Positions 1 through 37,285 of a stretch of DNA of 64,000 nt are shown piece by piece. Source of the DNA: Nitrososphaerota archaeon (GTDB lineage: Archaea; Thermoproteota; Nitrososphaeria_A; Caldarchaeales; Caldarchaeaceae); NCBI GenBank assembly GCA_041641305.1, contig JBEPYN010000001.1:1-64000 (forward strand), given 5' to 3'. The notes beneath the pieces were generated by a model. That model worked only from the letters and a program-made list of their open reading frames with translations. It made no database searches and was not told the origin of the DNA. Position 1 is the first letter of the stretch. Every line of letters begins with the position of its first letter. A program made the position numbers and the translations under genes.

Positions 1-1628
1 TCAAACAATATGGATGAGATATGTTGAATTTTTTTGCGAAGCATGGTGGATGCTTTGGCAACGGCTCCACCCACCATAACCGCTCCTCTGCTGCCCCACA
101 AGCCTGTGCTAAACGGCGTCGATAGCGTATCACCCAACACGACCTCGACATCTTCCTCAGGCACCGATAAGATTTCTGAAACAATTTTTGCCAAGAGTTT
201 GTCAAGACGTGTGCCCATCGAAACGGCTCCGGAGAATACGACAGGTTTGCCGTCCATCGAGAGTTTGACGGCGGCAGCCTCGCTCGAACCCCACCGTTGC
301 GACACACCGCTCATCGTGGGAACAGAGCCTTTCACACCGACTGCATAGCCAATTCCTACAACTTCGGTATCTTTGCCGACAAGTTGACCGACCCGTTGGA
401 CTAGTGTTTCAAAGGTTTCGAGAGGCCTACCACTGTCAAGAATCATCCCTGTAGCCGTCATGTAAGGGATGTCCGAGGAAGAGATAAGGTTACGCCTCCG
501 TACAGTAACGGGGTCGAGGCCAAGTTTCTCGGCCAAGATGTCTAAAGCTTTTTCGCGGACAAATGTGGCTTCTGGATGACCGAACCCCCTATAGGCCCCC
601 GCAGGCGTCTTGTTTGTTACAATCAGGCTGACTTCGGCGGCGTAGTTCTCTATGCGGTAAGGGCCGGGCAGCATGTCTATCACGACATGAGCAAGCTCCA
701 GATAGCTATGCGGTATCAGTGGATAGGCGCCTACGTCGAGATATGCTTCGTCTATGAGAGCCTTTATTCTCCCATCTCTGTTGGCGCCGATTTTGATGCG
801 GTGGACCTGTTCCCGTGAGTGAGCCGCAGCCGAGAGGTTTTCACGCCTGTCCTCGACCCATTTTACGGGTCTGCCGGTTATCATGGACAGGGCCGCGACT
901 ACAACGTCTTCTGAGTAGGTGTGGCCTTTTTGGCCAAATCCACCGCCTATATCTGGTGCAATTACCCTTATCCTGCTCTCAGGCAAATTCAAAACCTCTG
1001 AGAGTATTGTCCTATGCATGTGAGGGTTCTGGTTTGGCGACCAAACCGTGAGGAACCCGCGGCCCGCATCGTAGCTTGCAACCGCGCCCCTTGTCTCCAT
1101 CGGAGAAGGAGCCACCCGATGTGTTGAGAATTTTCCTTCCACAACTACCTCGGCCTTCTCCAGCTCATCGAAAGGGTCACCGTATTTTCTCGAAAACTTA
1201 ACCATCGTGTTATTTTCCCAACCCTCGTAAAGCTCGGCCCCGGAGCTGAACATGTCCGACAAGGGTGGCAGCGGCTCATAATCGATTTCAACACTATTTG
1301 CAACGTCGTATGCTCTGTAGAGGTCTTCGGCCACGACGGCGGCTACGGGCTCACCAACATACCTAACGCGCCCGTTTGCCAAAGGCGTAACCTCCATGGC
1401 TCTGCATCCCTCAAAGGGGAAAGAAAGCCGAAACGGCTTGACAAAATCACTCAACATACTCCAAGTAAATACCCGGGCTTCCGAGATGTTTTCCGGAATT
1501 TTCAAACCATGTACTGCAGCGTGTGGATAGCTGCTCCTGACAAAAACGCAACGAAGCATCTTCGGCAAAGATATGTCGTCGACGAAGGAGGCGTGTCCTG
1601 TTAAGAATTTTACATCACGCATTGACAT
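1..1628 (-). CDS. Xanthine oxidase/CoxL-family molybdenum hydroxylase large subunit, 3'-truncated by the window edge (absent from the ORF track)
   Basis: Minus strand from ATG at 1628 reads MSMRDVKFLTGHASFVDDISLPKMLRCVFVRSSYPHA; later TNKTPAGAYRGFGHPEATFVREKALD, typical Moco-subunit motifs. Confidence 0.9.
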   Translation of the reverse strand, partial: MSMRDVKFLTGHASFVDDISLPKMLRCVFVRSSYPHAAVHGLKIPENISEARVFTWSMLSDFVKPFRLSFPFEGCRAMEVTPLANGRVRYVGEPVAAVVAEDLYRAYDVANSVEIDYEPLPPLSDMFSSGAELYEGWENNTMVKFSRKYGDPFDELEKAEVVVEGKFSTHRVAPSPMETRGAVASYDAGRGFLTVWSPNQNPHMHRTILSEVLNLPESRIRVIAPDIGGGFGQKGHTYSEDVVVAALSMITGRPVKWVEDRRENLSAAAHSREQVHRIKIGANRDGRIKALIDEAYLDVGAYPLIPHSYLELAHVVIDMLPGPYRIENYAAEVSLIVTNKTPAGAYRGFGHPEATFVREKALDILAEKLGLDPVTVRRRNLISSSDIPYMTATGMILDSGRPLETFETLVQRVGQLVGKDTEVVGIGYAVGVKGSVPTMSGVSQRWGSSEAAAVKLSMDGKPVVFSGAVSMGTRLDKLLAKIVSEILSVPEEDVEVVLGDTLSTPFSTGLWGSRGAVMVGGAVAKASTMLRKKIQHISSILF

Positions 1629-1658
1629 GGTGTTAAATAATTTTGATTTATCCTTTAC

Positions 1659-1673
1659 ATCTTTATTAAAGAT
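1659..1673. promoter_or_regulatory. Palindrome ATCTTTA-T-TAAAGAT in the divergent promoter region; candidate operator overlapping a TATA-like element
   Basis: Perfect 7-1-7 inverted repeat between the Mo-hydroxylase gene and the ECF genes. Confidence 0.4.
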
Positions 1674-1736
1674 TTTGCTCCCACTCAGTCCCTATTCATA
1701 AACGCTTATAACCGAAGCAATAGCTGAATATGGACC

Positions 1737-2327
1737 GTGAGTAGCGAGGAAAGAATAGTTAGGAAAAGGAGTCCGACAACGCTCGTCGCCCTGTTTATAG
1801 TCTCCGCCGCCATCACAGCTGTCCTCGGAGCCTTCGGAAGCATCGTCTTTCCATTTTTAGCTCCGATATCGTCTTTCTACCCAGGCGTGGCCTTCCAAGT
1901 CAGCTTTGGAGTATGGTTCGGAATAATCGGCGCACTGGCAGGAGGTTTTCTCGGCCCCTTCATAGGGATAGTGCTGACCGGCACATCGGCGCCCATCGCT
2001 GCGGCTGTCGCTGTGGGAGACTTTTTCCAAGCCTTCATCCCAATGCTGGCGTTCCGTCTCGGTAGGTTCGACCCACGTCTCAAGTCAGGTAAAGACTGGG
2101 CGGGACACATAATCTTCAACGTGGTGATTGCCCAGGCCGTAGGCGCTACAATAGGTTCTGGGTCCTTGGCCGCTTTCGGGGTCTTTCCATGGGACATCTG
2201 GCCAATTGCGTGGCTAGGCTGGTTCGGTAGCAACGTCGTTGTCGTCGGCGTCATAACGACAATCCTGTTCAAGGTCTTCTCAGATTACCTGATGCGAACA
2301 GCCCTCTACATCGAGCGGTTCATCTAA
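1737..2327 (+). CDS. Putative ECF transporter substrate-binding (S) component
   Basis: 196-aa protein with about 6 hydrophobic segments, directly upstream of EcfT. Confidence 0.65.
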   Translation: MSSEERIVRKRSPTTLVALFIVSAAITAVLGAFGSIVFPFLAPISSFYPGVAFQVSFGVWFGIIGALAGGFLGPFIGIVLTGTSAPIAAAVAVGDFFQAFIPMLAFRLGRFDPRLKSGKDWAGHIIFNVVIAQAVGATIGSGSLAAFGVFPWDIWPIAWLGWFGSNVVVVGVITTILFKVFSDYLMRTALYIERFI

Positions 2328-2333
2328 CCGGGC

Positions 2334-3161
2334 ATGGCGTTCATAATAAGCGACATTCTAAAAGGCCTAATCCTCTACACCCCCAAAAACTCTTTTTTTG
2401 TCAAAGTTCACCCCGCAGTAAAACTGTTTGTCGTAATAGTATTCAGTTTCGCCGCTTTGTTAACCCCTAACCACAGCCTCGCCCTAGTCAACTTGATACT
2501 CATTGTTGTAACCGTTGTTGCGGCACGGGTTCCGGCGAAGGCTCTTCGTCTCTACACCTTTGTCATAGGGTGGATGCTGCTGGTTTCCTTTATTTTCTAT
2601 AGCTTCTTCACCCCGATACGCTCCGGCCCCATTTTGGCAACCGTCGGTTCCTTGAGGATAGGTTATGAGAATTTTATGGCGTGGCTGCTTGTCGCACTCA
2701 AGTTTCTCGCGGTCAGCTACGTCACGGCCCTACTCTTGGCCACTACTAAGCATAGGGATTTGGCAGTTGCTCTGAGAACATGGAGGTTGCCCTATGTCGT
2801 CAGCTTCACCTTCGCATCCATACTGCGTAACCTCGCGGTTGTATCTGTCGACTTGTTCACCATCATCGATGCACAGAGCTCTCGCGGTCTCAACTTCCGC
2901 AAAGGAAACCCGGTCCAAAGACTTGCGAAATTTGTCCGCGTCGGCATACCTCTTATATACGTATCCCTCAAAAGAACCGAGGAGATGAGCAATGCCATGG
3001 CCTCGCGTGGCTTCAAGGTCCGTGGAAAGAAAACGATGTATTACATCATACCGATGCGGATGAGAGACTACTTGGTTTCTGGGTTATTTACTCTGCATCT
3101 CGCCATAGTGCTCGCTGTCATGCTGGGAGTTCTGCCATTCCCCAAATTCGTATTTTTCTAA
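2334..3161 (+). CDS. ecfT: ECF transporter transmembrane (T) component, CbiQ family
   Basis: N-terminal HPAVKL; two X-R-G motifs (AQSSRG, AMASRGF). Confidence 0.9.
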   Translation: MAFIISDILKGLILYTPKNSFFVKVHPAVKLFVVIVFSFAALLTPNHSLALVNLILIVVTVVAARVPAKALRLYTFVIGWMLLVSFIFYSFFTPIRSGPILATVGSLRIGYENFMAWLLVALKFLAVSYVTALLLATTKHRDLAVALRTWRLPYVVSFTFASILRNLAVVSVDLFTIIDAQSSRGLNFRKGNPVQRLAKFVRVGIPLIYVSLKRTEEMSNAMASRGFKVRGKKTMYYIIPMRMRDYLVSGLFTLHLAIVLAVMLGVLPFPKFVFF

Positions 3162-4441
3162 AGGAGATACGTGGGGCCGGTGCTGCGGTAGTAAAACCTC
3201 GGCGGGTCAAACAGGTATTCGTCTGGGCATGTAACTTTGAGCTGTTTGTTGTTCAGCTTTATGTTGCGGCGGCTTGGTCTCGAGTCTTTGCCCCTTAGCC
3301 CGACAAGGTTTCCGTCAACTATGACGCCGGCGATTCCTATCATGTCACCTGCCTCGATGCTTTCTAACGCGTCGTTGCCCACACTTCCGGGAGGAGCGTC
3401 CATTACCAGAAGGTCGCCTGCACGGCCTGGCTCAATTTTACCCATGTTGAACTCGCTGGAGTATTTTCCGTAGCAGTCCAGTATGTTGCCTGTGGCTGTT
3501 GCGATGGCTTTTTCCGCTTGAAGTCCACATATGGATGAGAGAAACAGGATAGCGCGGTGGATGGCTACGGGCAGGTAGCCCTGGCCGGTGGGAGTGTCGC
3601 TCCCTACAATCAGTCGCTTAAGCTGGTTGCGCGACTTGAGATACTCATAGACACGTAGCGCCATCTTCATGTTTCCATAGGGTATGATCTCGAGCTTAGC
3701 ATCTCCGGTCCCATCTATCGCGGCTTTAACAACCTCCCAAGGTGGAGCTGTTGTGCCGCCGTTGATGTGAGCTATTTTGTCCGGCTTAATCGATGAGACA
3801 AGCTCGGCTGTCATGTTGAGGCTCTCTGGCAATACGCCAGGCCCGAGGTTCGTGGAGACAAAGTATCCCAGCTCCCGTGCCCATGACACCATTTCCTGAA
3901 TTTTTTTGGGGTCGTTGATGTTGGATGAGCCGCCTATCTGGCCGACACGCCACACTCCAGCGTTGCGTAGCTGCACAAAGTCTTCACGCGTTAACCCTTT
4001 GACAAGCATTATGGAGCCCGCGAAAACCTTCATCGCTCCTCCTGGCCTATAGTTTTTGTATGCCTTTTGCGAGAGAATGGCTGTAGCCTTTACTCCTTCT
4101 GGGTCGGCGCCATAGAAGAGTGGCAGCCCCTCAAACTGCAGCCATTCGTCGACGATGGTTGCTGTGCCCTGCAGCAGTGTTTCAGTGAGGAGACCGACCA
4201 TGTGCTGCATCGGAGAAAAGTCACCAAAGGATAGGTGAGTGTGCGGGTCTATGAAGGTGGGTGAAGCAGTCATTCCATCGGCGTCTATGACGATGTCCGC
4301 CGATTTCTCACCAATCTCGTCACTGTATCCAACCGCCTGTATGATTCCGTCAACTATTTTTACAGTGTCTGCTTTCAGAACACCCTTGTCCCAATCTCCG
4401 CTAACAAGCTTCCCTATGTTTGTTACAATTGTTGTAACCAC
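3158..4441 (-). CDS. Enamidase-like amidohydrolase
   Basis: NIGKLVSGD, DPHTH, GDFSP, AHINGG, GSDTPTG, ATGN, PPGSVG recall Eubacterium barkeri-type enamidase. Confidence 0.8.
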   Translation of the reverse strand: MVTTIVTNIGKLVSGDWDKGVLKADTVKIVDGIIQAVGYSDEIGEKSADIVIDADGMTASPTFIDPHTHLSFGDFSPMQHMVGLLTETLLQGTATIVDEWLQFEGLPLFYGADPEGVKATAILSQKAYKNYRPGGAMKVFAGSIMLVKGLTREDFVQLRNAGVWRVGQIGGSSNINDPKKIQEMVSWARELGYFVSTNLGPGVLPESLNMTAELVSSIKPDKIAHINGGTTAPPWEVVKAAIDGTGDAKLEIIPYGNMKMALRVYEYLKSRNQLKRLIVGSDTPTGQGYLPVAIHRAILFLSSICGLQAEKAIATATGNILDCYGKYSSEFNMGKIEPGRAGDLLVMDAPPGSVGNDALESIEAGDMIGIAGVIVDGNLVGLRGKDSRPSRRNIKLNNKQLKVTCPDEYLFDPPRFYYRSTGPTYLL

Positions 4442-4472
4442 GTCGCTTTCTCAGGCTTGAGGAGATTTATGT

Positions 4473-5303
4473 TTATTTGTTTAAGAGGTTCTTCACGGAT
4501 TCTACGAACTCGGCGACAGTGAGGGAGGGTTCTTCAAACCCGAGGTTTGCCATGCGTGATGACAAAATGGTTACCTGCGGAGGCTTGAGTTGAGCATCTC
4601 GGAGTTTTTCAAAGTCGGTTAACGCCTGCCGGGTCGGCTTGTCGATAAACACCTTTCCATCCTTCATTATTATGCATCTATCAGCATACTCCGCAACCAA
4701 GCGCATGTTATGGGTGATGAAAACGACTGTTTTTCCCTCCTTGTTTAATTTTTTCAAGATCTCCATTACCTCATAGGACTGTCTCATGTCCTGCCCAGTT
4801 GTAGGCTCGTCCACCACAAGGGTGTCTGGACGCATCGTCAAGACGCTGCACAACGCGACTCTAAGTCTGTCAGCCTTGCTGAGTAGAAACGGGTGAACAT
4901 CCCGGTATCGATCAAGCCCAAACAATCTGAGAGTCTCGTCGACGACTTGTTTAACCTCGTCCTCGGATGTGCCAAGATTTCTTGGCCCGAAAGCCAGCTC
5001 CTCCCAGACGGTTCTCATACATATCTGGTGGTCGGGATTCTGGAAAACATATCCAACTTTTTTGGCAAGGTCGGCCACGGAGGCTTCACGTGTATCTATG
5101 CCATGGACTATCATCTGACCACTTGTTGGCTTGAGTAATCCATTAATGTGTTTAGCTAGAGTCGTTTTACCGGAGCCGTTGTGCCCTATAAGAGCCACGA
5201 ATTCGCCGCGTCTGATTGATAAGTTAACATTGTGAAGAGCCACTACCCCGTTTGAGTAAACGTGGCTCAGGTTTTTCGCCTCGATTACGTTATCGTTAGA
5301 CAA
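4473..5303 (-). CDS. ecfA: ECF transporter ATPase (A')
   Basis: Walker A GHNGSGKT, Q-loop FQNPDHQ, Walker B VVDEPT; signature degenerate (LSKAD). Confidence 0.9.
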   Translation of the reverse strand: MSNDNVIEAKNLSHVYSNGVVALHNVNLSIRRGEFVALIGHNGSGKTTLAKHINGLLKPTSGQMIVHGIDTREASVADLAKKVGYVFQNPDHQICMRTVWEELAFGPRNLGTSEDEVKQVVDETLRLFGLDRYRDVHPFLLSKADRLRVALCSVLTMRPDTLVVDEPTTGQDMRQSYEVMEILKKLNKEGKTVVFITHNMRLVAEYADRCIIMKDGKVFIDKPTRQALTDFEKLRDAQLKPPQVTILSSRMANLGFEEPSLTVAEFVESVKNLLNK

Positions 5304-6159
5304 ACTTTTTCACCGGTATCAGTTTTTTCAACATCTCCTCGGCCTCGTCTAACGTGATGGGTATTTCCAGCTCGTTAGTGAGTTCTCTTCTGAGGAGAAG
5401 AGCTATCTCCACCACCTGTGGAGCCGGTACGCCCGATTTGGATAATTCCTGGGAGTCTTTAAAGAAGCCTCTGAAGTCTCCATCATAGAGAATACGGCCC
5501 TCATTCATCACAACCAACTTGTCAGTGAAAGGCGCCAGCTCCTCTAAAATGTGTTCAACAACGATTATAGTGATGCCTTGTTTCTTGAGGTGTTGTAGTA
5601 CGTTAACCACTTCTTCTTTCCCTATAGGGTCGAGCTGTCCAGTAGGCTCGTCGAGAATCAAGACCTTAGGCTTCATGGCCAGTGCCGCCGCTATCGCGAC
5701 GCGTTGTTTCTGGCCGCCCGAAAGTTCATAGGGCGCCCTCTCCAGCAAGTCCTCAACCCTAACAAGCTTAGCCACCTCATAGACTCTTTCCCGCATCTCC
5801 TCCAGAGGCAGAGCAAGATTCTCAAGTCCGAAGGCGATCTCATCCTCCACAGACATCGTCAGGAACTGGCTTTCAGGGTCCTGGAAAACAATCCCAACCA
5901 AGTTGGCCATGTCTGAACTGTCGAGAGAGAAGGTGTCCTTCCCAAAGACGTTCACTTTTCCCTTCAATGTGCCGTTGTAGTGATGAGGGATAAGGCCTGA
6001 CATGGCGAGGCATAGGGTTGTCTTACCAGCGCCCGTCGGCCCGGTAATTACCACAAATTCCCCTTCTTGGACAGAGAGGTTTATGTCTGATAAAACCCAG
6101 TCCGAGCTTGTGGCGTATTTCCACCAGAAAGACTTGACTTCTATAGGTTTCTCGCTCAC
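5296..6159 (-). CDS. ecfA: ECF transporter ATPase (A)
   Basis: GPTGAGKT, FQDPESQF, LSGGQKQR, LDEPT. Confidence 0.9.
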   Translation of the reverse strand: MSEKPIEVKSFWWKYATSSDWVLSDINLSVQEGEFVVITGPTGAGKTTLCLAMSGLIPHHYNGTLKGKVNVFGKDTFSLDSSDMANLVGIVFQDPESQFLTMSVEDEIAFGLENLALPLEEMRERVYEVAKLVRVEDLLERAPYELSGGQKQRVAIAAALAMKPKVLILDEPTGQLDPIGKEEVVNVLQHLKKQGITIIVVEHILEELAPFTDKLVVMNEGRILYDGDFRGFFKDSQELSKSGVPAPQVVEIALLLRRELTNELEIPITLDEAEEMLKKLIPVKKFV

Positions 6160-6180
6160 CCAGCATCACCTTTTCATCAA

Positions 6181-7533
6181 CTATTTAAACATCTTTCGAA
6201 CTTTTTCGACAACATCTTTCGGCAAGCTCGGAACGGTTGTCTGGGAATGTTTCCAATGTGGTGGTGTGGTTGCATCTATGACAGCCCTGCTTGTGAACCC
6301 TGCTTTTTCCTGCGAAGGGTCAAGCATGTTCCCATCTGTGACTGGGAACAAATGTATGTTGCGGTCTGGCTGGCTTCGTGTAGCGACTGCCCACAACACT
6401 TGTTTTTCGTCAAACACATCTATGTCGCCATCGACGAGGATAACATATTTCACGTAGGGGTTGGCGCCCATGAGAAACATTGCAGCCCGTATCTGGATAC
6501 CCTCCTTCGCCTCTTTATCCACGGAAAGAATTGCTACAAAATGTGTTCCCCATACAGGGAAATTGATTGCTTTCACCTCAGGTATGGATTCTTTGAGTTT
6601 TTTGTACAAGTTGGCCTGCATCGGTAATCCACCTAGCAGTAGATGTTCGGATGAGTTGGCGGGGATAATGGTGTGAAAAATTGGTTTTTGTCGATGTGTG
6701 ATGCAGTCGATGATCATTACGTTGCGGGTGGAGCGGCCTGAGACATAGCCGGTGTATTCGGAGAAGGGGCCTTCGTCTTCGTAGACATCGGTCAAAATCC
6801 GGCCCTCGAGAACTATCTCCGCGTTGTGGGGCACAAGGATGTCATTCGTTTCGCATTTAACCAGCTCAACCGGCTCTGATGCAAGGGCGCCAGCCAATTT
6901 GTATTCATCGGTTGTCCTAGTGGCTGCTGCGAGATAAAGTGTCGGATGACATCCTATGACGACGGAGACGTGTAGCCAAGGTCGCCTGAGCTCGACGGCT
7001 CGGTTAAAGTATCTCCAGAGGTTGCCTCGAGAATGTATGCTAACGCCTAGTCTGTTCCTGCCTTTAACCATGAGTCGGGCAAAGCTCAAGTTCACTTCTC
7101 CGGTTTCGGGATGGTTTGCCACAACAATTCCCGACGTTATGTATCGTCCACCATCCTCCAAGAAAAACTTCTGAGCAGGTAACATGCCTAAATCAACGTC
7201 GCCGTAAAAATGCTTCACCTCCTTGACAGGCCCCGTAGAAACAACCTCTGGCTCAACCGTAGCACCGGTTTTCTCGAGCCATCTATCATAAAAATTCAAT
7301 GCATCTGAGCCAATCATCCGCGCGACACGATTCCTAGAGCCAAAGATGTTTGCCACAACTGGCATGGTGTAGTCAGAAACTTTTTCAAAGAACAGAACAG
7401 GGCTGCCTCTCTGCTCAAACATCCTCCAGACAGCTGTTATCTCATAATCAGGTGAGACCGGTTCGGAAACTTTCACAAATTCCTCCGGATAGTTTTGTCT
7501 GAGGTCTTCGAGATATTGACGCAGGTCTTTCAT
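6181..7533 (-). CDS. UbiD-family prFMN-dependent (de)carboxylase
   Basis: EDGGRYIT, EIVLEG, EGPFSEYTGY, VDGDIDV, WAVATR, LDPS, IDAT motifs. Confidence 0.9.
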   Translation of the reverse strand: MKDLRQYLEDLRQNYPEEFVKVSEPVSPDYEITAVWRMFEQRGSPVLFFEKVSDYTMPVVANIFGSRNRVARMIGSDALNFYDRWLEKTGATVEPEVVSTGPVKEVKHFYGDVDLGMLPAQKFFLEDGGRYITSGIVVANHPETGEVNLSFARLMVKGRNRLGVSIHSRGNLWRYFNRAVELRRPWLHVSVVIGCHPTLYLAAATRTTDEYKLAGALASEPVELVKCETNDILVPHNAEIVLEGRILTDVYEDEGPFSEYTGYVSGRSTRNVMIIDCITHRQKPIFHTIIPANSSEHLLLGGLPMQANLYKKLKESIPEVKAINFPVWGTHFVAILSVDKEAKEGIQIRAAMFLMGANPYVKYVILVDGDIDVFDEKQVLWAVATRSQPDRNIHLFPVTDGNMLDPSQEKAGFTSRAVIDATTPPHWKHSQTTVPSLPKDVVEKVRKMFK

Positions 7534-7605
7534 CAGTCGAAGGGGTGTCGCGGTGTTTTTATCTATTATGAATCATTATAAACGAGCAGCCCGCGTCCAG
7601 TTGCT

Positions 7606-8559
7606 GTGCGGCTTGGCATCGCTCTTGTTCCGGAGTTTATTGGAAGGGTGAGGATGGTTTCCACCGGTGTCTCAGCGGAAAAGGTTGGTTACGATTCTGT
7701 GTGGGTCCCTGAGCATCTGAACGGCGGCGAGGCCTTCTCTCTGCTCGGTGCGATAGCAGCTAGGACTTCGAGGATAAAGCTCGGAACTGCAGTGGTTAGC
7801 ATAAACCTCCGCCATCCATCACTTACAGCCTTGGCAGCCGCGACGCTGAGCGATGTCTCAGGAGGACGCTTCACTTTAGGCCTTGGTTTGGGAGATCTGA
7901 CACAGCTGAGAAACTCCTTCGGCATAGTGGACGAAAAACCGGTGAGGTCGATGATTGAAGCTGTTAAAATTTGTAGACAAATCTTCCAGGGAAAGTCAGA
8001 TTTTGAAGGCGAAAGGTTTCAATCACATCTTCATCAACTAGTTAAGCCGGCGAAGCCTCCGAAAATATTCATGGCAGCTGTGGGTGATCAGATGCTCAGA
8101 GCAGCCGGGAGACACGGAGACGGAGTAATCTACTCAGTCTTCATGTCGCCTGAATCTATTGAAAAATCAAACGCAGTAATAAAATCTATGCCGATGTTCT
8201 CGCGTAGAAGTGATGATTTCGTGTTTATGGGATTGTTGGCAACAGCTTCAGAGAAGAATCGCCAGCAATTGAGGGAGTTGGCGGCTGTTTTTCTCTCATG
8301 GCCACGCAGAGCTGAGCAATCTCTTTCAACTTGGTTACTTCATAAAATAGATGTGGAGAAGATAAGAATGCTTCTGTCAAGAGGTGAAACAAGAAAAGCC
8401 GGTGAAATGGTGGACGACGAGGTGCTCGAGAGTTTCGCATGCATAGGCAACTTCAAAACAATACACAGGAAAATCAGAGAGTTTCTCGATGCCGGGATAA
8501 CATATCCTGTCCTGTATCCTGTGGGCGATGCCAAACATTTTTTGGAGAGAAAGGTATAA
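7606..8559 (+). CDS. LLM-class, probably F420-dependent (Mer-like), oxidoreductase
   Basis: WVPEH, TSRIKLGTAV, RHP, SGGRFTLGLG, AAGRHGDG. Confidence 0.85.
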   Translation: MRLGIALVPEFIGRVRMVSTGVSAEKVGYDSVWVPEHLNGGEAFSLLGAIAARTSRIKLGTAVVSINLRHPSLTALAAATLSDVSGGRFTLGLGLGDLTQLRNSFGIVDEKPVRSMIEAVKICRQIFQGKSDFEGERFQSHLHQLVKPAKPPKIFMAAVGDQMLRAAGRHGDGVIYSVFMSPESIEKSNAVIKSMPMFSRRSDDFVFMGLLATASEKNRQQLRELAAVFLSWPRRAEQSLSTWLLHKIDVEKIRMLLSRGETRKAGEMVDDEVLESFACIGNFKTIHRKIREFLDAGITYPVLYPVGDAKHFLERKV

Positions 8560-31198: not shown

Positions 31199-31531
31199 AT
31201 GGAGTTTTGTCCAAAGTGTGGGAAAACATTGTCGCCCTCGAGAGTAGGAGGCAAGGCCATGCTTGTGTGTAAGAGATGTGGTTATCAGAAGCCACTTGAG
31301 GGGGAGAAAGTGGTTGTTAAGGTGGAGCGTGAAAACACTGGCTCAAAAAGCGTCACTGACATAATCGAGGCCGAGGAGGCGCCTCTACCCACAACAACTG
31401 ATGTTGTCTGTCCCCAGTGTGGACATAATGAGGCAAAGTGGTGGACGGTTCAAACGCGGTCGGCCGACGAGCCGATGACACAGTTCTTTAGATGCGTGAA
31501 ATGCGGCCATACATGGCGTGAATACGCCTAA
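31199..31531 (+). CDS. tfs: Transcription factor S
   Basis: Two zinc ribbons; QTRSADEPMT acidic hairpin. Confidence 0.95.
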   Translation: MEFCPKCGKTLSPSRVGGKAMLVCKRCGYQKPLEGEKVVVKVERENTGSKSVTDIIEAEEAPLPTTTDVVCPQCGHNEAKWWTVQTRSADEPMTQFFRCVKCGHTWREYA

Positions 31532-32232
31532 TACGTCACGAAGTTCAAAATCTTTCCGAACTGAAAAGGCTTGACGTTTCTCAGAAAGTCTTGAGAAGCC
31601 GCAATAGCGCAGACACCCACCATCTCACCCCGTCCAGAGACAAGCTGTGCCCTTAGTTCTTTCAATGGGACATGAGTATCCAGGACCCCAGCCATGACAA
31701 GGAGATGATGTTTAAACGCCTCACGAGGGACAAAAAGTCTCTGAACAATACGTGCCTGCCTGTTTTTGTATCTGATTTCAATCCATCTGTCGGAAATATA
31801 TGCCTCAGTACTTTGTGCGTAGTAAACTTTTTTCAGCGTAGATAAACCGAAACCGGTTGCAACCACTATCCCCGCCCTGTCCACTCCGAGAACCGCGTCG
31901 ACCCTATATCCAGAGAATTCTTTCAGCATGTAGGCGACGAGCAGCTCCACCAAGCTGCTTTCGGAAACTATCTGTGAAACATCAACTTCATCCTCGGTCA
32001 CAACCACACGTTGATTTATGATTGCTTGAATATCCAGCTTAGAGATAAGATTATCTATCAAGGCTTGGGCACGTTTTCCATGTGGGATAGTTTTGTTGGT
32101 AACGTATCTTGTCAAAGTTGATACGGGTATGCCTGTTTGCTTGGAGAGGATCTTATAGTCCATGCTGGTTTTGAGTGTTTTCAAAATCTGTACAGCAAGG
32201 TATGATAAGTAGGCGTTCGATGCTTTCTTCAA
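31528..32232 (-). CDS. HTH-phosphoribosyltransferase-fold protein (PurR-like regulator)
   Basis: N-terminal HTH (YKILSKQTGIPVSTLTRYV); PRTase-like body with the PRPP DD motif replaced (LLVMAGVLDT). Confidence 0.7.
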   Translation of the reverse strand: MKKASNAYLSYLAVQILKTLKTSMDYKILSKQTGIPVSTLTRYVTNKTIPHGKRAQALIDNLISKLDIQAIINQRVVVTEDEVDVSQIVSESSLVELLVAYMLKEFSGYRVDAVLGVDRAGIVVATGFGLSTLKKVYYAQSTEAYISDRWIEIRYKNRQARIVQRLFVPREAFKHHLLVMAGVLDTHVPLKELRAQLVSGRGEMVGVCAIAASQDFLRNVKPFQFGKILNFVTY

Positions 32233-32322
32233 ACCTCCTCAAGAGGAATTTGCCCAAATATAGGATTTTCAAGATCGAAAATGGTAAAAACTAAATACAT
32301 TCAGCAAAGATATGTAGGTGGT

Positions 32323-34506
32323 TTGCGAAGGGTTTACAGCGCGTATGATGCGGTGCGTGGGGCTCCAATATACACCGAGGACATAGTACCTGAGAACGCT
32401 CTCCGTGTTAAGGCTCTAAGGTCTGAGTATCCGCATGCGTTGATAAAACGTGTAGATGTCTCAGCTGCTATGCAGGTGCCCGGCGTGGTCGCGGTCTTCA
32501 CCGCCCTAGATGTACCGGGTCAAAACATAACGGGTGCGGTTGTGCTGGACAGGCCTTTCCTCGCATATAACAAGGTTAGATGCCTGGCTGACCCCATAGC
32601 GCTTGTGGTCGCGGTTGATGAGGAAGCCGCAGACAAGGCGATTGAGAAGATAGTTGTCGACTATGAGGTTTTCGAGCCCGTCTACGATCCTGTTAAAGCG
32701 CTTGAGGAATCGGCTCCAAGGGTGCATGAAAATAATCTGCTCCGCCACTATAGGCTACGTAAAGGAGACATAACTCGTGGCTTTAACGAGTCAGACATCA
32801 TCGTGGAGGAGGAGTTTAGGACGCAGATGCAGGACCCGGCTCCTCTCGAGACTGAGGCTGCATACGCTGTCCCCGAGGAAGACGGCAGCCTAACAATCTA
32901 CGGCAGCATCCAGAACCCCTTCTATGTGCTAACAGGTGTCTCGAGAATACTTGGTCTACCGCGTGAAAAAATTAACCTGGTTGTGATGGCTATTGGTGGG
33001 ACTTTTGGAGGAAAATCCGACGAGGCGCCTTGGGATGTCTGCGCAATGGCTGGGCTTGCCGCACTAAAGACAGGGAAACCTGCAGCATGTATCTACGGTC
33101 GCGACGAGTCAATGATAGCTCATTCTCATCGACACCCAGCCGTAATGCGCTATAAGGTCGGAGCAACTATGGATGGCAGGCTAAAGGCATTGGATGCCGA
33201 CCTCTTCTTCGACACAGGAGCCTATGCCTCTGTCGGCCCACTCGTCATGCTCAGAGCGGTGACCCACGCAGCCGGGCCATATGTTGTGGAAAACGTAAGA
33301 GTAGACTCCTACCTCGTTTACACAAACAATTTGACGGCTGGGTCGATGAGAGGCTTTGGTTCCCCCCAGGTTCACTTCGCTGTTGAGTCTATGATGGATA
33401 TTCTTGCGGAGAAGCTTGGAATGGATCCTGTTGAGCTTCGGCTGAAAAATGCTTGGAGACAGGGAGTAGTAACCGCAAGCGACGCTGTCTTGATGGATAA
33501 TCCAGATTTTGGCATATTGGCTGAGAAGGTGTGCGAGAGGCTGGGATGGAGGCACGGAGAGAAAAATCCGGACGAGGGTGTGGGCATAGCTTTCATGGCT
33601 CATGGCAACAGCCTCGGTCCAGAGGGTGAAGACAAGTCCTCGGCAACGGTTAGAATATCGTCCGATGGCATGGTCCACGTCGCCACCTCTTTGACTGAGT
33701 ATGGCACAGGCGCTTCACGCGGGTTTGCGAAAATAGCTGCATCTGTTCTGGGTGTGCCCGAGGAGAGGATCGTTGTGGACCGTGTTGAGACAAAGAAAGT
33801 CCCTGACTCGGGTGGAACGTTTGCATCCCGCTCCACCCTCATGGGCGGAAACGCCGTCTATCTTGCAGCCAAGAAACTGAGGGAAAGGGTTGAGCAGTTG
33901 ATCAAAGAGTCTGGCCAAACAGGTGTGAACGTCGCAGATTTTGTCCGCGACATCCTGCGTGAAGAGGTATCTGAGTATGCGGAGTTTAAGTTACCCGCAT
34001 GCGATTACGATCCCGAAACTGGAAAGGGAACGCCCTATCTTCAATACACCTATGGTGTTGTGGGTGTGCGTGTAAAGGTTGACAGGGAGCTTGGTATTGT
34101 GAGGGTGAAGGATATTGTGGCTGCTTTTGATGTTGGACGCGTGGTCAACAAAGGGTATTTGACGGCTCAGCTGGAGGGCGGGATCACTCAGGGAGTCGCT
34201 TACGGCCTTCTCGAAGAGCTTGTAATCGGGAAAAAGCATAAGGTTCTCAACCCCAACCTCGCCGACTACCTTGTCCCCACCGCAGCCGACATGCCTCGTG
34301 TAGAGGTCATCGTCGTCGAAAACCCCAGCCCACTAACGCCCATCGGGACAAGAACCGCAGGCGAACCGGGGATAGACGCACCCGCAGCAGCCATAGCCAA
34401 CGCCGTCCACGACGCCCTCAAAATCAGAATAACATCTCTCCCAATAACCCCGGAGAAAGTATTGGTTGCTTTGGAGAAAGCTCAAGCTATTGCCGCAACT
34501 GTTTAA
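32323..34506 (+). CDS. Xanthine dehydrogenase-family Mo-binding subunit (probable TTG start at 32323)
   Basis: SEYPHA, GGTFGGK, MRGFGSPQ, TFASRS, QLEGG, GEPG. Confidence 0.92.
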   Translation: MRRVYSAYDAVRGAPIYTEDIVPENALRVKALRSEYPHALIKRVDVSAAMQVPGVVAVFTALDVPGQNITGAVVLDRPFLAYNKVRCLADPIALVVAVDEEAADKAIEKIVVDYEVFEPVYDPVKALEESAPRVHENNLLRHYRLRKGDITRGFNESDIIVEEEFRTQMQDPAPLETEAAYAVPEEDGSLTIYGSIQNPFYVLTGVSRILGLPREKINLVVMAIGGTFGGKSDEAPWDVCAMAGLAALKTGKPAACIYGRDESMIAHSHRHPAVMRYKVGATMDGRLKALDADLFFDTGAYASVGPLVMLRAVTHAAGPYVVENVRVDSYLVYTNNLTAGSMRGFGSPQVHFAVESMMDILAEKLGMDPVELRLKNAWRQGVVTASDAVLMDNPDFGILAEKVCERLGWRHGEKNPDEGVGIAFMAHGNSLGPEGEDKSSATVRISSDGMVHVATSLTEYGTGASRGFAKIAASVLGVPEERIVVDRVETKKVPDSGGTFASRSTLMGGNAVYLAAKKLRERVEQLIKESGQTGVNVADFVRDILREEVSEYAEFKLPACDYDPETGKGTPYLQYTYGVVGVRVKVDRELGIVRVKDIVAAFDVGRVVNKGYLTAQLEGGITQGVAYGLLEELVIGKKHKVLNPNLADYLVPTAADMPRVEVIVVENPSPLTPIGTRTAGEPGIDAPAAAIANAVHDALKIRITSLPITPEKVLVALEKAQAIAATV

Positions 34507-34957
34507 GGGCCGCCGACACAGCGTCGACGATCTTTGTGTATCCGCCGCATCGGCAAATGTTGGCTATGAGTATGTGTCTGATTGTCTGCTCATCGGCGTC
34601 GGGGTAGTTGTCGGCGATGTATTTCGCTGTTACAACGATGCCTGGTATGCAGAAGCCGCACTGGGATGCTGTGTACTCGAGGAGAGCTGACTGTATAGGG
34701 TGAAGGCTTTCCCCAGGTGTGATGCCCTCCAAAGTTGTTACATTTTTTCCACGGACTTGGACGGCGAGCATCATGCAGGAGTTGATGAGCTTGCCGTCGA
34801 CGATGACGTTGCATGAGCCGCAGTCCCCTGTGCCACAGGCCTCCTTCACACTCTTCATGCCGAGACGGCGGAGAAGATCCATCAACCGCTCGTTACCACG
34901 CAGCTCCGCTGAGACAGGCTTACCGTTAAGCACAAACTCAATCCTCATCAAAACCAC
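34487..34957 (-). CDS. Xanthine dehydrogenase-family 2Fe-2S subunit
   Basis: CGTGDCGSC..NSC, QCGFC, NICRCGGY. Confidence 0.95.
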   Translation of the reverse strand: MVLMRIEFVLNGKPVSAELRGNERLMDLLRRLGMKSVKEACGTGDCGSCNVIVDGKLINSCMMLAVQVRGKNVTTLEGITPGESLHPIQSALLEYTASQCGFCIPGIVVTAKYIADNYPDADEQTIRHILIANICRCGGYTKIVDAVSAALKQLRQ

Positions 34958-35816
34958 CCCTCATCAAGTAGCTCCAGCAAAACTCGAGACCACGCCTCAG
35001 CAAAACTTTTGAGACATGTTTTCTGAAGCTGCTGGAGGCCCTGAAGTCTGACGCAGGCCGTATCCTTGACACGCTTTCTTCAACAGCCTCCCTTAGCAGA
35101 CTTGGGTTAATCGCCTTCCCTATCAACGCATTTTCTAGGTCTGTGAGCCGACCCATCTGTCTGCCTTCAACCCTGTTCAAAACAATCCTCAGCTTCTTAA
35201 CTATGCCGTCAACAGCCTTCATGGAGACTGCGGCCGTCACAACCCCTATGCCGTTGGAGGCTCTCTTCTCAAACTTTGAGAACCATGAGACCGATCCAGG
35301 GCCCCAGTCACGGAAAACAGCCTCAGCAACAACTTCGCCACGTCGCAGAGAAAGCTCAAGCGGCCCCGCAACCCTCTCACCCTCAGGGCCAACAATCTTC
35401 ACCTCCCCGTCGAGAGAGGCCATTATAGCGGGAATGTCTCGCTCACCGCCTGAGGCGAGGTTGCCCCCAACGGTTGCCATGTGTCGGGTGGTCTCTGCTC
35501 CGAAGTATTTGCTGAGCCAGCGTATGGATAAGTAGTTCCTCGGAATTGCTGGGGAGTTGGCGAGTTCATGCACCGTCGCCAGCCCGCCTACTCGGATTAT
35601 CTCCCTCTCCCTCTTCACATATCGTAGCTCATTCACACCCGACAGATCGATAACAGCCCGCGGCCGAATTTTTCCACGCCGCATAAAAGGCATCAAATCC
35701 GTGCCACCTGCGTACAGCACAACATCACCGTCAAGACGCGAATATAGACTGATAACCTCTCGAAGCGACGAAGGAGTGTAGACCTCGAAGCTGGGGACAG
35801 CCTTCAACCAAATCAT
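34938..35816 (-). CDS. Xanthine dehydrogenase-family FAD subunit
   Basis: AGGTDL, ATVGGNL, SDFRAS. Confidence 0.92.
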   Translation of the reverse strand: MIWLKAVPSFEVYTPSSLREVISLYSRLDGDVVLYAGGTDLMPFMRRGKIRPRAVIDLSGVNELRYVKREREIIRVGGLATVHELANSPAIPRNYLSIRWLSKYFGAETTRHMATVGGNLASGGERDIPAIMASLDGEVKIVGPEGERVAGPLELSLRRGEVVAEAVFRDWGPGSVSWFSKFEKRASNGIGVVTAAVSMKAVDGIVKKLRIVLNRVEGRQMGRLTDLENALIGKAINPSLLREAVEESVSRIRPASDFRASSSFRKHVSKVLLRRGLEFCWSYLMRGGFDED

Positions 35817-35890
35817 TTTTGTTACGGATGAATATAAGGAAATGGCTGACCGTCTCTACATCGTTATATTTCCGTGTAGAGGTTATTGTT

Positions 35891-37285
35891 GTGTTGGCGA
35901 AAGACGGATTCGATCTCATGGTTCGTAACTGTAGGGTAGTGGATGTGGATGGTGTTTACGAGGCTGACATAGCTGTCGCTGGCGGAAGGATTGCGGCCAT
36001 CGGCCGCAGACTGGAGGCACGTGCCGAGAAAATATACGATGCAGGCGGACGCTATGTTTTTCCTGGAGCGATAGACGGCCACGTCCACTTCAAGCTCAAG
36101 TATTTCGAGAACGTCTACACAGCCGACGATTTTTACACGGGAACAGTTGCGGCGGCATGTGGTGGGGTCACGACGATAATCGACTTCGTGACACCTGAGA
36201 CCAAGGACTATGTTGAGGATTTTCGGAGACGGAGAGCCGAGGCAGATGGAGAGGTAGTCGTAGATTATGGGCTCCACATGAGCGTGACGGACTACGACGA
36301 AAAGATAGAGAGGATGCTCATTCACCTTTTTGAGAATGAAGGTCTCGCTAGCGTGAAGATGTTCACCGCCTATAGCCGCAGAGGCCTCATGCTCGACGAC
36401 GGAAAAGCATACAGGCTGATGAAGCTCTGCGGTGAGAAAAACGTCCTGGTCATGGTTCATGCCGAGAACGAGCATCTCATCAACACTTTTGTGGAAGAGT
36501 TTGTTTCACAGGGCAAGACCGAGCCTATTTACCATTCGCGGAGTAGACCAGATTTTGTGGAGGCCGAGGCGGTGAACCGGGTCGCTTTCTTATCTGGTTT
36601 GACGGGTGCCGAGATACTTATTGTCCACGTCTCCTCGGCGATGGGTCTCGACGCGATACAGGAGGCGAGGCAGAAAGGTGTGAAGATTCATGGGGAAACT
36701 TGTCCACACTATCTTATGTTCACTGAAGATGTGTATTTGAAACCTGACGGAGCGAAGTTCATTATGTCTCCTCCTCTTAAGAAGGAGCATGACAGAGAGG
36801 TGTTGTGGAAAGGCGTTTTGACCGATGGGTTTTCAGTGGTTGGAAGCGACCACGCCTGCTTCAACTTGTCACAGAAACTTGGACACAAAAGCTTTACAAC
36901 TGTTCCAGGCGGTGTGGCTGGGACCGAGGTGATACCCATGATACTTTTCTCAGAAGGTGTTGTGAAGCGGGGGATGCCTCTTAGCCGCTTCATCACTTTG
37001 ACAGCTCTAAACCCAGCCAAGCTATATGGCGTCTATCCGCGGAAAGGTGTCATCAGGGTTGGCGCGGACGCCGACTTCTACATCCTAGACCCATCGCAGA
37101 AAACACGTCTTACAAGGGAAAACCTTCACAGCAACATAGACCACTCGATATACGAAGACGTCGAGGTCAGCTGCCGCATAGTAGCCACCTTCTCCCGGGG
37201 AGAACAGATAGTTGAAAACGGTGAATTCATCGGGAAACGGGGCAGAGGACAATACATCCCCATGAATAGAGGCGGAGGTGGATGA
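35891..37285 (+). CDS. hydA: Dihydropyrimidinase / D-hydantoinase
   Basis: IDGHVH, GGVTT, SVKMF, VHAEN, ETCPHYL, MSPPL, SDH. Confidence 0.9.
   Translation: MLAKDGFDLMVRNCRVVDVDGVYEADIAVAGGRIAAIGRRLEARAEKIYDAGGRYVFPGAIDGHVHFKLKYFENVYTADDFYTGTVAAACGGVTTIIDFVTPETKDYVEDFRRRRAEADGEVVVDYGLHMSVTDYDEKIERMLIHLFENEGLASVKMFTAYSRRGLMLDDGKAYRLMKLCGEKNVLVMVHAENEHLINTFVEEFVSQGKTEPIYHSRSRPDFVEAEAVNRVAFLSGLTGAEILIVHVSSAMGLDAIQEARQKGVKIHGETCPHYLMFTEDVYLKPDGAKFIMSPPLKKEHDREVLWKGVLTDGFSVVGSDHACFNLSQKLGHKSFTTVPGGVAGTEVIPMILFSEGVVKRGMPLSRFITLTALNPAKLYGVYPRKGVIRVGADADFYILDPSQKTRLTRENLHSNIDHSIYEDVEVSCRIVATFSRGEQIVENGEFIGKRGRGQYIPMNRGGGG

Follow-up and report, generated by a model that had tools for sequence, protein, structure and literature searches.

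Genes for pteridine breakdown were found in 2025 and have been reported in bacteria only (PMC12391406). In Cupriavidus sp. LA-1, lumazine/pterin cluster I encodes the enzymes PDA, LuDH, DHLI and XCDC (Doi et al., 2025; PMC12391406). A pair of Amidohydro_2 proteins contracts 6,7-dihydroxylumazine to xanthine-8-carboxylate in this bacterium, and a UbiD enzyme decarboxylates the product. The type of xanthine oxidoreductase (XOR) encoded in lumazine clusters varies by lineage, and Streptomyces versions have an orphan molybdenum (Mo) subunit (PMC12391406). Here we describe a gene cluster at the start of a 64,000 nt stretch of DNA (termed the window; GenBank contig JBEPYN010000001.1) from a Nitrososphaerota archaeon. 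The cluster encodes an importer of the energy-coupling factor (ECF) type, a UbiD decarboxylase, an enamidase-fold protein termed the Q/N enzyme, and xanthine oxidase-family and F420-type proteins. We estimate a chance of roughly one in two that it comprises two joined modules acting on bicyclic N-heterocycles of the pteridine/purine class. Module A (ECF S, T, A and A′, Q/N enzyme, UbiD) would combine ECF import and Mo hydroxylation with ring contraction and decarboxylation to xanthine. Module B (orphan Mo subunit, SsnA-like hydrolase, an F420-type enzyme and a deaminase) would carry out purine opening of the SsnA/F420 type.

The architecture of the window cluster matches LA-1 cluster I in several respects. 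Both have a UbiD of the same clade with shared active-site motifs, an adjoining amidohydrolase-superfamily enzyme with an HxH+Asp site, a Mo subunit of the xanthine oxidase family (orphan in the window, as in Streptomyces), a dedicated transporter and a nearby deaminase. In contrast, the ring enzyme of the window is enamidase-derived rather than an Amidohydro_2 protein and has no helper GTPase, an ECF or BMP-type ABC importer stands in the place of NCS2, and the Mo subunit is no LuDH orthologue. Also, the window genome is archaeal and without ubiX, and its cluster is joined to a module of SsnA and luciferase-like monooxygenase (LLM) type. The window cluster lacks DHLI, the GTPase, LuDH and ubiX and is therefore not a member of cluster I.

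A conserved cluster in Caldarchaeum

The genome that contains the window (G000; L-numbers below denote loci, G-numbers genomes and C1 to C4 its four contigs) spans 1.66 Mb and is 99.3% complete, and the window takes up the first 64 kb of C1. An initial annotation of the window had placed nine open reading frames (ORFs) around two divergent gaps. All nine and their families were borne out, and the gaps are real (108 bp and 72 bp; Table 1). Position 1, which had been read as lying upstream of the Mo gene, is the contig start at the 3′ end of that gene. C1 overlaps C3 by 127 nt, and the Mo gene joined across both contigs encodes a full 766 amino acids. Beyond it, C3 carries an SsnA-like amidohydrolase gene, the gene for another LLM (LLM2) and, in convergent orientation, a TRZ/ATZ deaminase gene; the flavin adenine dinucleotide (FAD) and iron-sulfur (FeS) subunits and the ubiX gene that had been expected beyond position 1 are not present there on C3.

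The gene order deaminase, LLM2, SsnA-like, Mo subunit, S, T, enamidase-like, A, A′, UbiD is common to five Caldarchaeum species. These ten genes keep their order in G011, G004, G009 and G002 and also in further metagenome loci, and the loci related to the window cluster carry the name Ca. Caldarchaeum. The closed genome G011 (1,680,938 bp) carries the UbiD orthologue of Ca. Caldarchaeum subterraneum, and its cluster genes are 76–96% identical to those of G000. Together with the pairing of the enamidase-like gene and UbiD across distant archaeal loci, this shared order shows co-localisation above chance, a check that the initial annotation had asked for. At the same site next to the EF-1alpha gene, G001 and G005 (L187, L188) retain remnants only; both lack module A and the Mo gene, and LLM2 is frameshifted in G005. 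We agree with the initial annotation that this is an undescribed archaeal cluster acting on some N-heterocycle, and the cluster probably represents a conserved system for the uptake and breakdown of such compounds.

The UbiD decarboxylase groups with lumazine-cluster proteins

The window UbiD has three UbiD domains, and its residues R169, E254 and E259 make up the RXnEX4(E/D) motif of the family (PMC5818171). Its closest solved relative is the furan-2,5-dicarboxylate decarboxylase HmfF (6H6V/6H6X; E 7e-80), whose heteroatom-binding His297 it retains. Unlike the window protein, HmfF lacks an HSRG motif and belongs to a separate clade. The best plasmid matches to the window UbiD (39–41%, about 320 bits; next groups about 210) sit with two Amidohydro_2 genes, UbiX, a GTPase and XOR subunits, and mostly also with a deaminase and an NCS2 permease. 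One of the two Amidohydro_2 proteins in these plasmid clusters lacks two Zn histidines, as described for LA-1, and the layout is that of lumazine cluster I of LA-1 (PMC12391406).

In a tree of 72 proteins, the window UbiD falls in one clade (100/99) with the plasmid UbiDs and with the UbiDs, long as well as short, that adjoin Q/N enzymes. HmfF-like proteins, BsdC, the E. coli-type UbiD and AcnX-adjacent mevalonate enzymes (families f3/f4) fall outside. Grouping of the window UbiD with the HmfF proteins was rejected (approximately unbiased test, p-AU 2e-57). The motifs SxHSRG[HN]LW, NS[SA]EHL and G[TS]HF are common to the window UbiD and the XCDC-type proteins. Judged by sequence, no lineage with a characterised member is closer than the xanthine-8-carboxylate decarboxylase (XCDC) type, and this placement suggests a substrate class.

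A UbiD that serves as the anhydromevalonate-phosphate decarboxylase of the archaeal mevalonate pathway, with its position in the cluster incidental, is extremely unlikely. It is the only UbiD in the genome, and the UniRef name of the C. subterraneum orthologue starts with ‘Anhy’. However, the AcnX-adjacent UbiDs form a separate clade and grouping with them was rejected (p-AU 0.0004), no AcnX dehydratase was found in the genome, a gene of the diphosphomevalonate decarboxylase family is present, and most Caldarchaeum species are without this UbiD. The identity that the initial annotation had listed as fatal to its own proposal is thus not the one indicated by the tree.

An enamidase fold with an altered metal site

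Enamidase cleaves a cyclic amide. The closest structure to the Q/N enzyme is the enamidase 2VUN (phmmer E 1.2e-77; 38% identity), and a predicted model superimposes on it with Z 51.9 and a root-mean-square deviation of 2.1, the next match reaching Z 29. The binuclear ligands of enamidase, which we take to be H67, H69, E164, H193, H220 and D276, were located on the alignment. Two of the six are lost in the window protein, where the bridging Glu164 is replaced by Gln168 and His193 by Asn198; H67, H69, H225 and D282 remain. The enamidase-like call of the initial annotation therefore stands for fold and sequence kinship, but not for an intact binuclear metal site.

The Q168/N198 pattern is invariant (28 of 28 aligned members) in a single clade (SH-aLRT 100), in which all members with a named source are archaeal. 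A 400-genome sample of the phylum yielded no Q/N protein outside Caldarchaeum; the more distant members were drawn from metagenome contigs and from other assemblies. An Atlas search with the Q/N enzyme returned generic amidohydrolases only. The remaining HxH+Asp set matches the putative Zn ligands of the bacterial ring-contracting isomerase DHLI. No protein of the DHLI family Amidohydro_2 (PF04909) was found in the genome, and BLAST matches to DHLI or to its helper GTPase were found neither in the genome nor in the loci.

Pairing of the Q/N enzyme with UbiD

Loci were merged at 90% identity and kept if they had at least 6 kb of flank, which gave 15 groups with a Q/N enzyme and 8 with ligand-intact (E/H) sisters; the groups are related, and the counts describe a pattern rather than a statistical test. 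A UbiD gene lies nearby in 15/15 Q/N groups (11 with the full motif, one truncated) and in 0/8 E/H groups. The Q/N groups also contain the same S family (9/15), a BMP nucleoside-type ABC transporter (6/15), a Mo large subunit (11/15) and an LLM (5/15), whereas genes for an FAD/FeS subunit or a creatininase occur in 0/15. The orphan Mo subunits of these 11 groups recall the Streptomyces lumazine clusters. Among the E/H groups, creatininase (6/8) and a TRZ-type hydrolase (6/8) are frequent. Other Q/N neighbours are of purine type (BMP nucleoside ABC, SsnA with LLM, adenine deaminase, hydantoinase), and module A, as Q/N enzyme, UbiD and transporter, stands alone in several lineages.

Purine or imidazole catabolism with no pteridine step would offer another explanation for this unit, and we consider it rather unlikely. 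The Q/N enzyme would then hydrolyse a purine ring or a ureido- or amino-imidazole, the UbiD would decarboxylate an imidazole carboxylate (in a xanthinase-like pathway or one for a methylated or 8-substituted base), and module B would handle a related purine. The xanthinase pathway has both hydrolytic and decarboxylative steps, and its decarboxylase is said, in work by Tong from 2023, to depend on prenylated flavin mononucleotide (prFMN). Consistent with such a route, the E/H sisters have creatininase, PNP, PfkB, adenine deaminase and BMP transporters as neighbours, a Chloroflexi member of the UbiD clade pairs with another amidohydrolase and an NMT1 transporter, and Arg residues of the UbiD substrate pocket differ from XCDC. 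However, the xanthinase pathway needs four hydrolases, and the conserved unit here is one hydrolase plus UbiD with a transporter and often a Mo enzyme, while creatininase is absent from all 15 groups. Furthermore, neither Clostridia nor Bacilli are among the named top 120 UbiD matches, and a purine auxotroph gains less from a high-affinity importer that serves only purine destruction.

In L080, L082, L130, L133–L136 and L142, the ligand-intact sisters of the Q/N enzyme occur with genes for creatininase-family proteins, deaminases, PNP and PfkB. These loci may constitute a separate undescribed bacterial route for salvage of nucleosides or damaged purines. In L085 (1074–15766), L113 and L114, a single cluster combines two Q/N copies, two UbiDs of different clades, an orphan Mo subunit and a BMP transporter, which suggests two related substrates or two rounds of reaction. 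Some Caldarchaeum genomes (G002, G004, G009, G010; e.g. L046, L050, L051) have five to eight UbiD paralogues, several of them in tandem with amidohydrolases and Mo enzymes, and sister species have none.

The importer and the supply of prFMN

The dedicated ECF importer recognised in the initial annotation is complete, with S, T and two ATPases in one cluster as in the group I layout. The S component has no Pfam match and belongs to no curated family; we assign it from its position, from homologues that adjoin T and A genes in distant loci, and from neighbours in the Atlas that bear the name ECF S component (0.94).

Searches of the genome for purC, ribH, cofG, a PF02441 protein and AcnX found none of them. 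Given the absence of purC, ribH and cofG, the cell appears to depend on scavenging for its purines, flavins and F420 precursors. G000 also has genes like cofC, cofD and cofE and about 13 LLMs, and no CoaB-type flavoprotein domain; without cofG, F420 would require imported FO.

These absences bear on a very unlikely alternative, in which the Q/N protein is a non-catalytic or cofactor-handling partner of UbiD and the ECF system imports prFMN or a flavin precursor instead of a substrate. The tight pairing of the Q/N gene with UbiD would fit this role, as would two near-complete genomes that keep an intact UbiD and have no ubiX, a genome without ribH and cofG in which flavins must be scavenged, a gene for the prFMN chaperone LpdD in one locus, and the metal-free helper subunit of DHLI itself. 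In contrast, H67, H69, H225 and D282 are invariant, as in an active site, and these S and Q/N genes are also found in loci with ubiX inside the cluster (L091–L093; ubiX is likewise inside the cluster in L095). Moreover, other lineages have replaced the S gene by a nucleoside-type BMP transporter.

Beyond Caldarchaeum, the Caldarchaeales genera g15 and g11 (e.g. G061, G069, G074) have AcnX with an adjacent lipid-pathway UbiD. No UbiX/PF02441 protein was found in most of these genomes, which are 70–95% complete (g15, two partial matches in 14; g11, none in three). This combination suggests uptake of prFMN or a different prenyltransferase.

Reads from one hot-spring metatranscriptome match the sense strand of the S and Q/N genes at 85–95%, at about one-tenth of the depth of EF-1alpha, and show transcription in a relative only. 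No reads covered UbiD or most of the Mo gene, where relatives may fall below 85% identity so that the result is uninformative, and RNA runs X1–X3 gave next to nothing.

Mo subunits, LLMs and the link to purine opening

The reductive urate pathway employs XdhD, YgfK/UacX or an F420-type LLM, SsnA, HyuA and YgeW, and its Chloroflexota form has SsnA beside the F420-type LLM (PMC12507026). Similarly, an F420-type LLM and a Mo subunit are the immediate neighbours of the SsnA-like hydrolase on C3, and hydantoinase and carbamoyltransferase genes are found elsewhere in the genome. The known pathway has neither UbiD nor enamidase, and the C3 pair is a paralogue of a closer pair on C4. The C3 protein scores 268 bits with TIGR03314 (cut-off 455) and its C4 paralogue 332 bits; the C4 pair is linked to XdhA-like subunits, two carbamoyltransferases, a carbamate kinase-like ORF and adenine deaminase. 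A second altered active site of the cluster is that of the C3 protein (L001:797–2116), in which Gln takes the place of the strand-6 His of its amidohydrolase family (SQCV instead of AHCV). In G013, module B occurs without module A, its neighbours being a BMP transporter and the orthologues of the window FAD, FeS and Mo genes (32281–35816).

A purine cluster is split over the end of C3, C4 and the end of C2 (L002, L003, L004), with genes for a BMP ABC transporter, adenine deaminase, LLM, SsnA-like protein, FAD, FeS and Mo subunits, two carbamoyltransferases, a carbamate kinase-like protein and pyridoxal phosphate enzymes. This gene set resembles a reductive urate pathway in an archaeal F420 version, and its LLM is present in nearly all family genomes.

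The window Mo subunit scores 383 bits with QorL and 151 with NdhL, which places it nearer to quinoline 2-oxidoreductase, and it is a single chain rather than a split NdhL/NdhM. Orthologues occur in 6/17 family genomes. The candidacy of this protein as a LuDH orthologue was rejected (27–29% to LuDH-type proteins). The Mo subunits that adjoin the Q/N–UbiD pair in other lineages form another group nearer to LuDH, represented in G000 by C1:502371. That gene is present in 17/17 family genomes and does not track the cluster, which speaks neither for nor against a role in trans. For the LLM at the right end of the cluster (7606–8559), orthologues are limited to G011 and, more distantly, G013. The initial annotation had cast it as an F420-dependent replacement for Hnr, a role ill suited to a gene that is not core to the cluster, as three of the five species with the cluster (G002, G004, G009) lack an orthologue.

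In that annotation, a pyridine mono- or dicarboxylate would be imported, decarboxylated, hydroxylated by the Mo enzyme, reduced with F420 and hydrolysed, by analogy with the Eubacterium barkeri nicotinate pathway (NdhFSLM, Hnr, enamidase 2VUN). An enamidase fold near a Mo hydroxylase subunit is common to both systems, 2VUN is by far the closest structure of the Q/N enzyme, the best PDB match of the Mo subunit hydroxylates quinoline, and F420-type LLMs are present. However, E164 and H193 are lost across the whole Q/N clade, the UbiD groups with XCDC-type proteins, an LLM occurs in only a third of the Q/N groups, and the single-chain Mo subunit is QorL-like with no adjacent FAD/FeS genes. To our knowledge, UbiD is not part of the E. 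barkeri pathway. The cluster contains no Hnr- or Hgd-like ORF, a result confined to the cluster as no genome-wide search was made. A pyridine substrate is therefore improbable and the nicotinate analogy is not supported; the pathway most likely serves pteridines or purines.

A paralogue of the Q/N enzyme at C2:539134, between its own Mo subunit and LLM, further weakens the pyridine route for the window cluster. This protein keeps 6/6 ligands, groups with ordinary enamidases, and is present in 13/16 family relatives. Its locus (C2:536804–547912, L184) also encodes a branched-chain ABC transporter, a DUF1185-like protein and an aldehyde dehydrogenase, and the LLM is of F420 type. The C2 cluster would be the better candidate for an F420-linked route of nicotinate type.

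A proposed pteridine-to-purine route

On the preferred pteridine/purine reading, module A would be the archaeal counterpart of the bacterial lumazine route. Pterin or lumazine would be imported by the ECF system and deaminated by the TRZ/ATZ deaminase on C3. Hydroxylation of the ring by a Mo enzyme would yield 6,7-dihydroxylumazine or a near analogue. The one-metal Q/N enzyme would open the pyrazine lactam and reclose it to a purine-8-carboxylate, replacing the unrelated DHLI, and the prFMN-dependent UbiD would decarboxylate this to xanthine or an analogue. The product could enter purine salvage, as purC is absent, or catabolism. Module B, mostly on C3, would be a paralogue of the reductive purine-opening module, with a Mo step, F420-dependent ring reduction and SsnA-type hydrolysis. 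We infer every substrate and reaction, and the Mo enzyme for each step, from the genes, their synteny, trees, residue changes and gene absences.

Several findings weigh against this reading. The XCDC identity of the plasmid UbiDs is assigned by cluster layout, and the tree includes neither the LA-1 XCDC sequence itself nor a xanthinase-pathway UbiD. The window group has lost two Arg of the GRxPRE stretch of XCDC-type proteins (GGLPMQ). The UbiD clade is broad and some members adjoin neither DHLI nor a Q/N enzyme, so clade membership does not fix the substrate. Three Q/N locus groups have only a UbiD of another clade, and the groups are not independent. Furthermore, the Q/N enzyme cannot be aligned to DHLI, the window Mo subunit is the least LuDH-like full-length Mo subunit of the genome, and the C3 deaminase has the HxxE motif but is only 28% identical to the cluster I deaminase, which falls short of a pterin deaminase orthologue. 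Finally, ubiX was found neither in G000 nor in the closed G011 genome, and because of this absence the UbiD may be inactive in G000.

Other features of the window

The coordinates of the cluster and of related genes are collected in Table 1. A scan for sigma-70 promoters, whose consensus is unsuited to archaea, performed at chance level.

Table 1. Features of the window that belong to the cluster or may be linked to it.
Feature	Position	Strand	Remarks
Mo large subunit, xanthine oxidase family, orphan; 5′ 542 codons	3..1628	-	Module B; QorL/CoxL-like group, catalytic GE motif kept
Putative B recognition element (BRE)/TATA-like box	1700..1711	+	TTATAA at 1706–1711, 25 nt ahead of S start, in divergent gap; similar box in five relatives
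ECF S component, family without a name	1737..2327	+	Module A; single copy in genome; homologues adjoin Q/N enzyme in 9/15 locus groups
ECF T component (CbiQ family)	2334..3161	+	Module A
Enamidase-fold amidohydrolase (Q/N enzyme), proposed ring-contracting isomerase	3158..4441	-	Module A; H67, H69, H225, D282 kept; Q168/N198 for E164/H193
ECF ATPase	4473..5303	-	Family assignment
ECF ATPase	5296..6159	-	Family assignment
UbiD decarboxylase	6181..7533	-	Module A; clade with XCDC-type proteins; R169, E254, E259, H297 intact; sole UbiD in genome
LLM/F420-type oxidoreductase	7606..8559	+	Variable cluster member; 37% homologue flanks module B in G013
Second Mo large subunit (PucD/XdhA-like)	32281..34506	+	Orthologue abuts module B in G013
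2Fe-2S and FAD subunits	34487..35816	-	Orthologues directly beside module B Mo gene in G013; candidate in-trans partners of orphan Mo subunit
Dihydropyrimidinase/hydantoinase	35819..37285	+	Above TIGR02033 cut-off; possible HyuA-like downstream step; 30% homologue inside cluster in L094

The second locus (31528–37285) encodes a regulator-like ORF, Mo, FeS and FAD subunits and a dihydropyrimidinase. Since its orthologues adjoin module B in G013, it may supply the partner subunits absent beside the orphan Mo subunit. Exact 127 nt overlaps close three of the four joins between contigs (C4-C3-C1-C2) and the last gap falls inside an FAD-subunit gene, leaving G000 nearly closed.

Implications

Two points would surprise a specialist, namely the rebuilt enamidase and the UbiD without ubiX. 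An intact UbiD in near-complete genomes that have no ubiX, as for the lipid-pathway UbiD of a related genus, raises the question of how these cells obtain prFMN. If the proposed route is correct, archaea reach the same pteridine chemistry with a different ring-contracting enzyme, a case of convergence in which a two-metal hydrolase became a one-metal isomerase. It would also give a substrate to an ECF family that has no name and a purine source to a purine auxotroph. More tentatively, and with the odds against the full picture, hot-spring archaea without de novo purine synthesis may make purines from scavenged pteridines. Their enamidase would have shed its second metal and independently become a pteridine cycloisomerase, supplied by a new pteridine-binding ECF family and followed by a UbiD whose prFMN, for want of a ubiX gene, would be imported or made by an unknown prenyltransferase.

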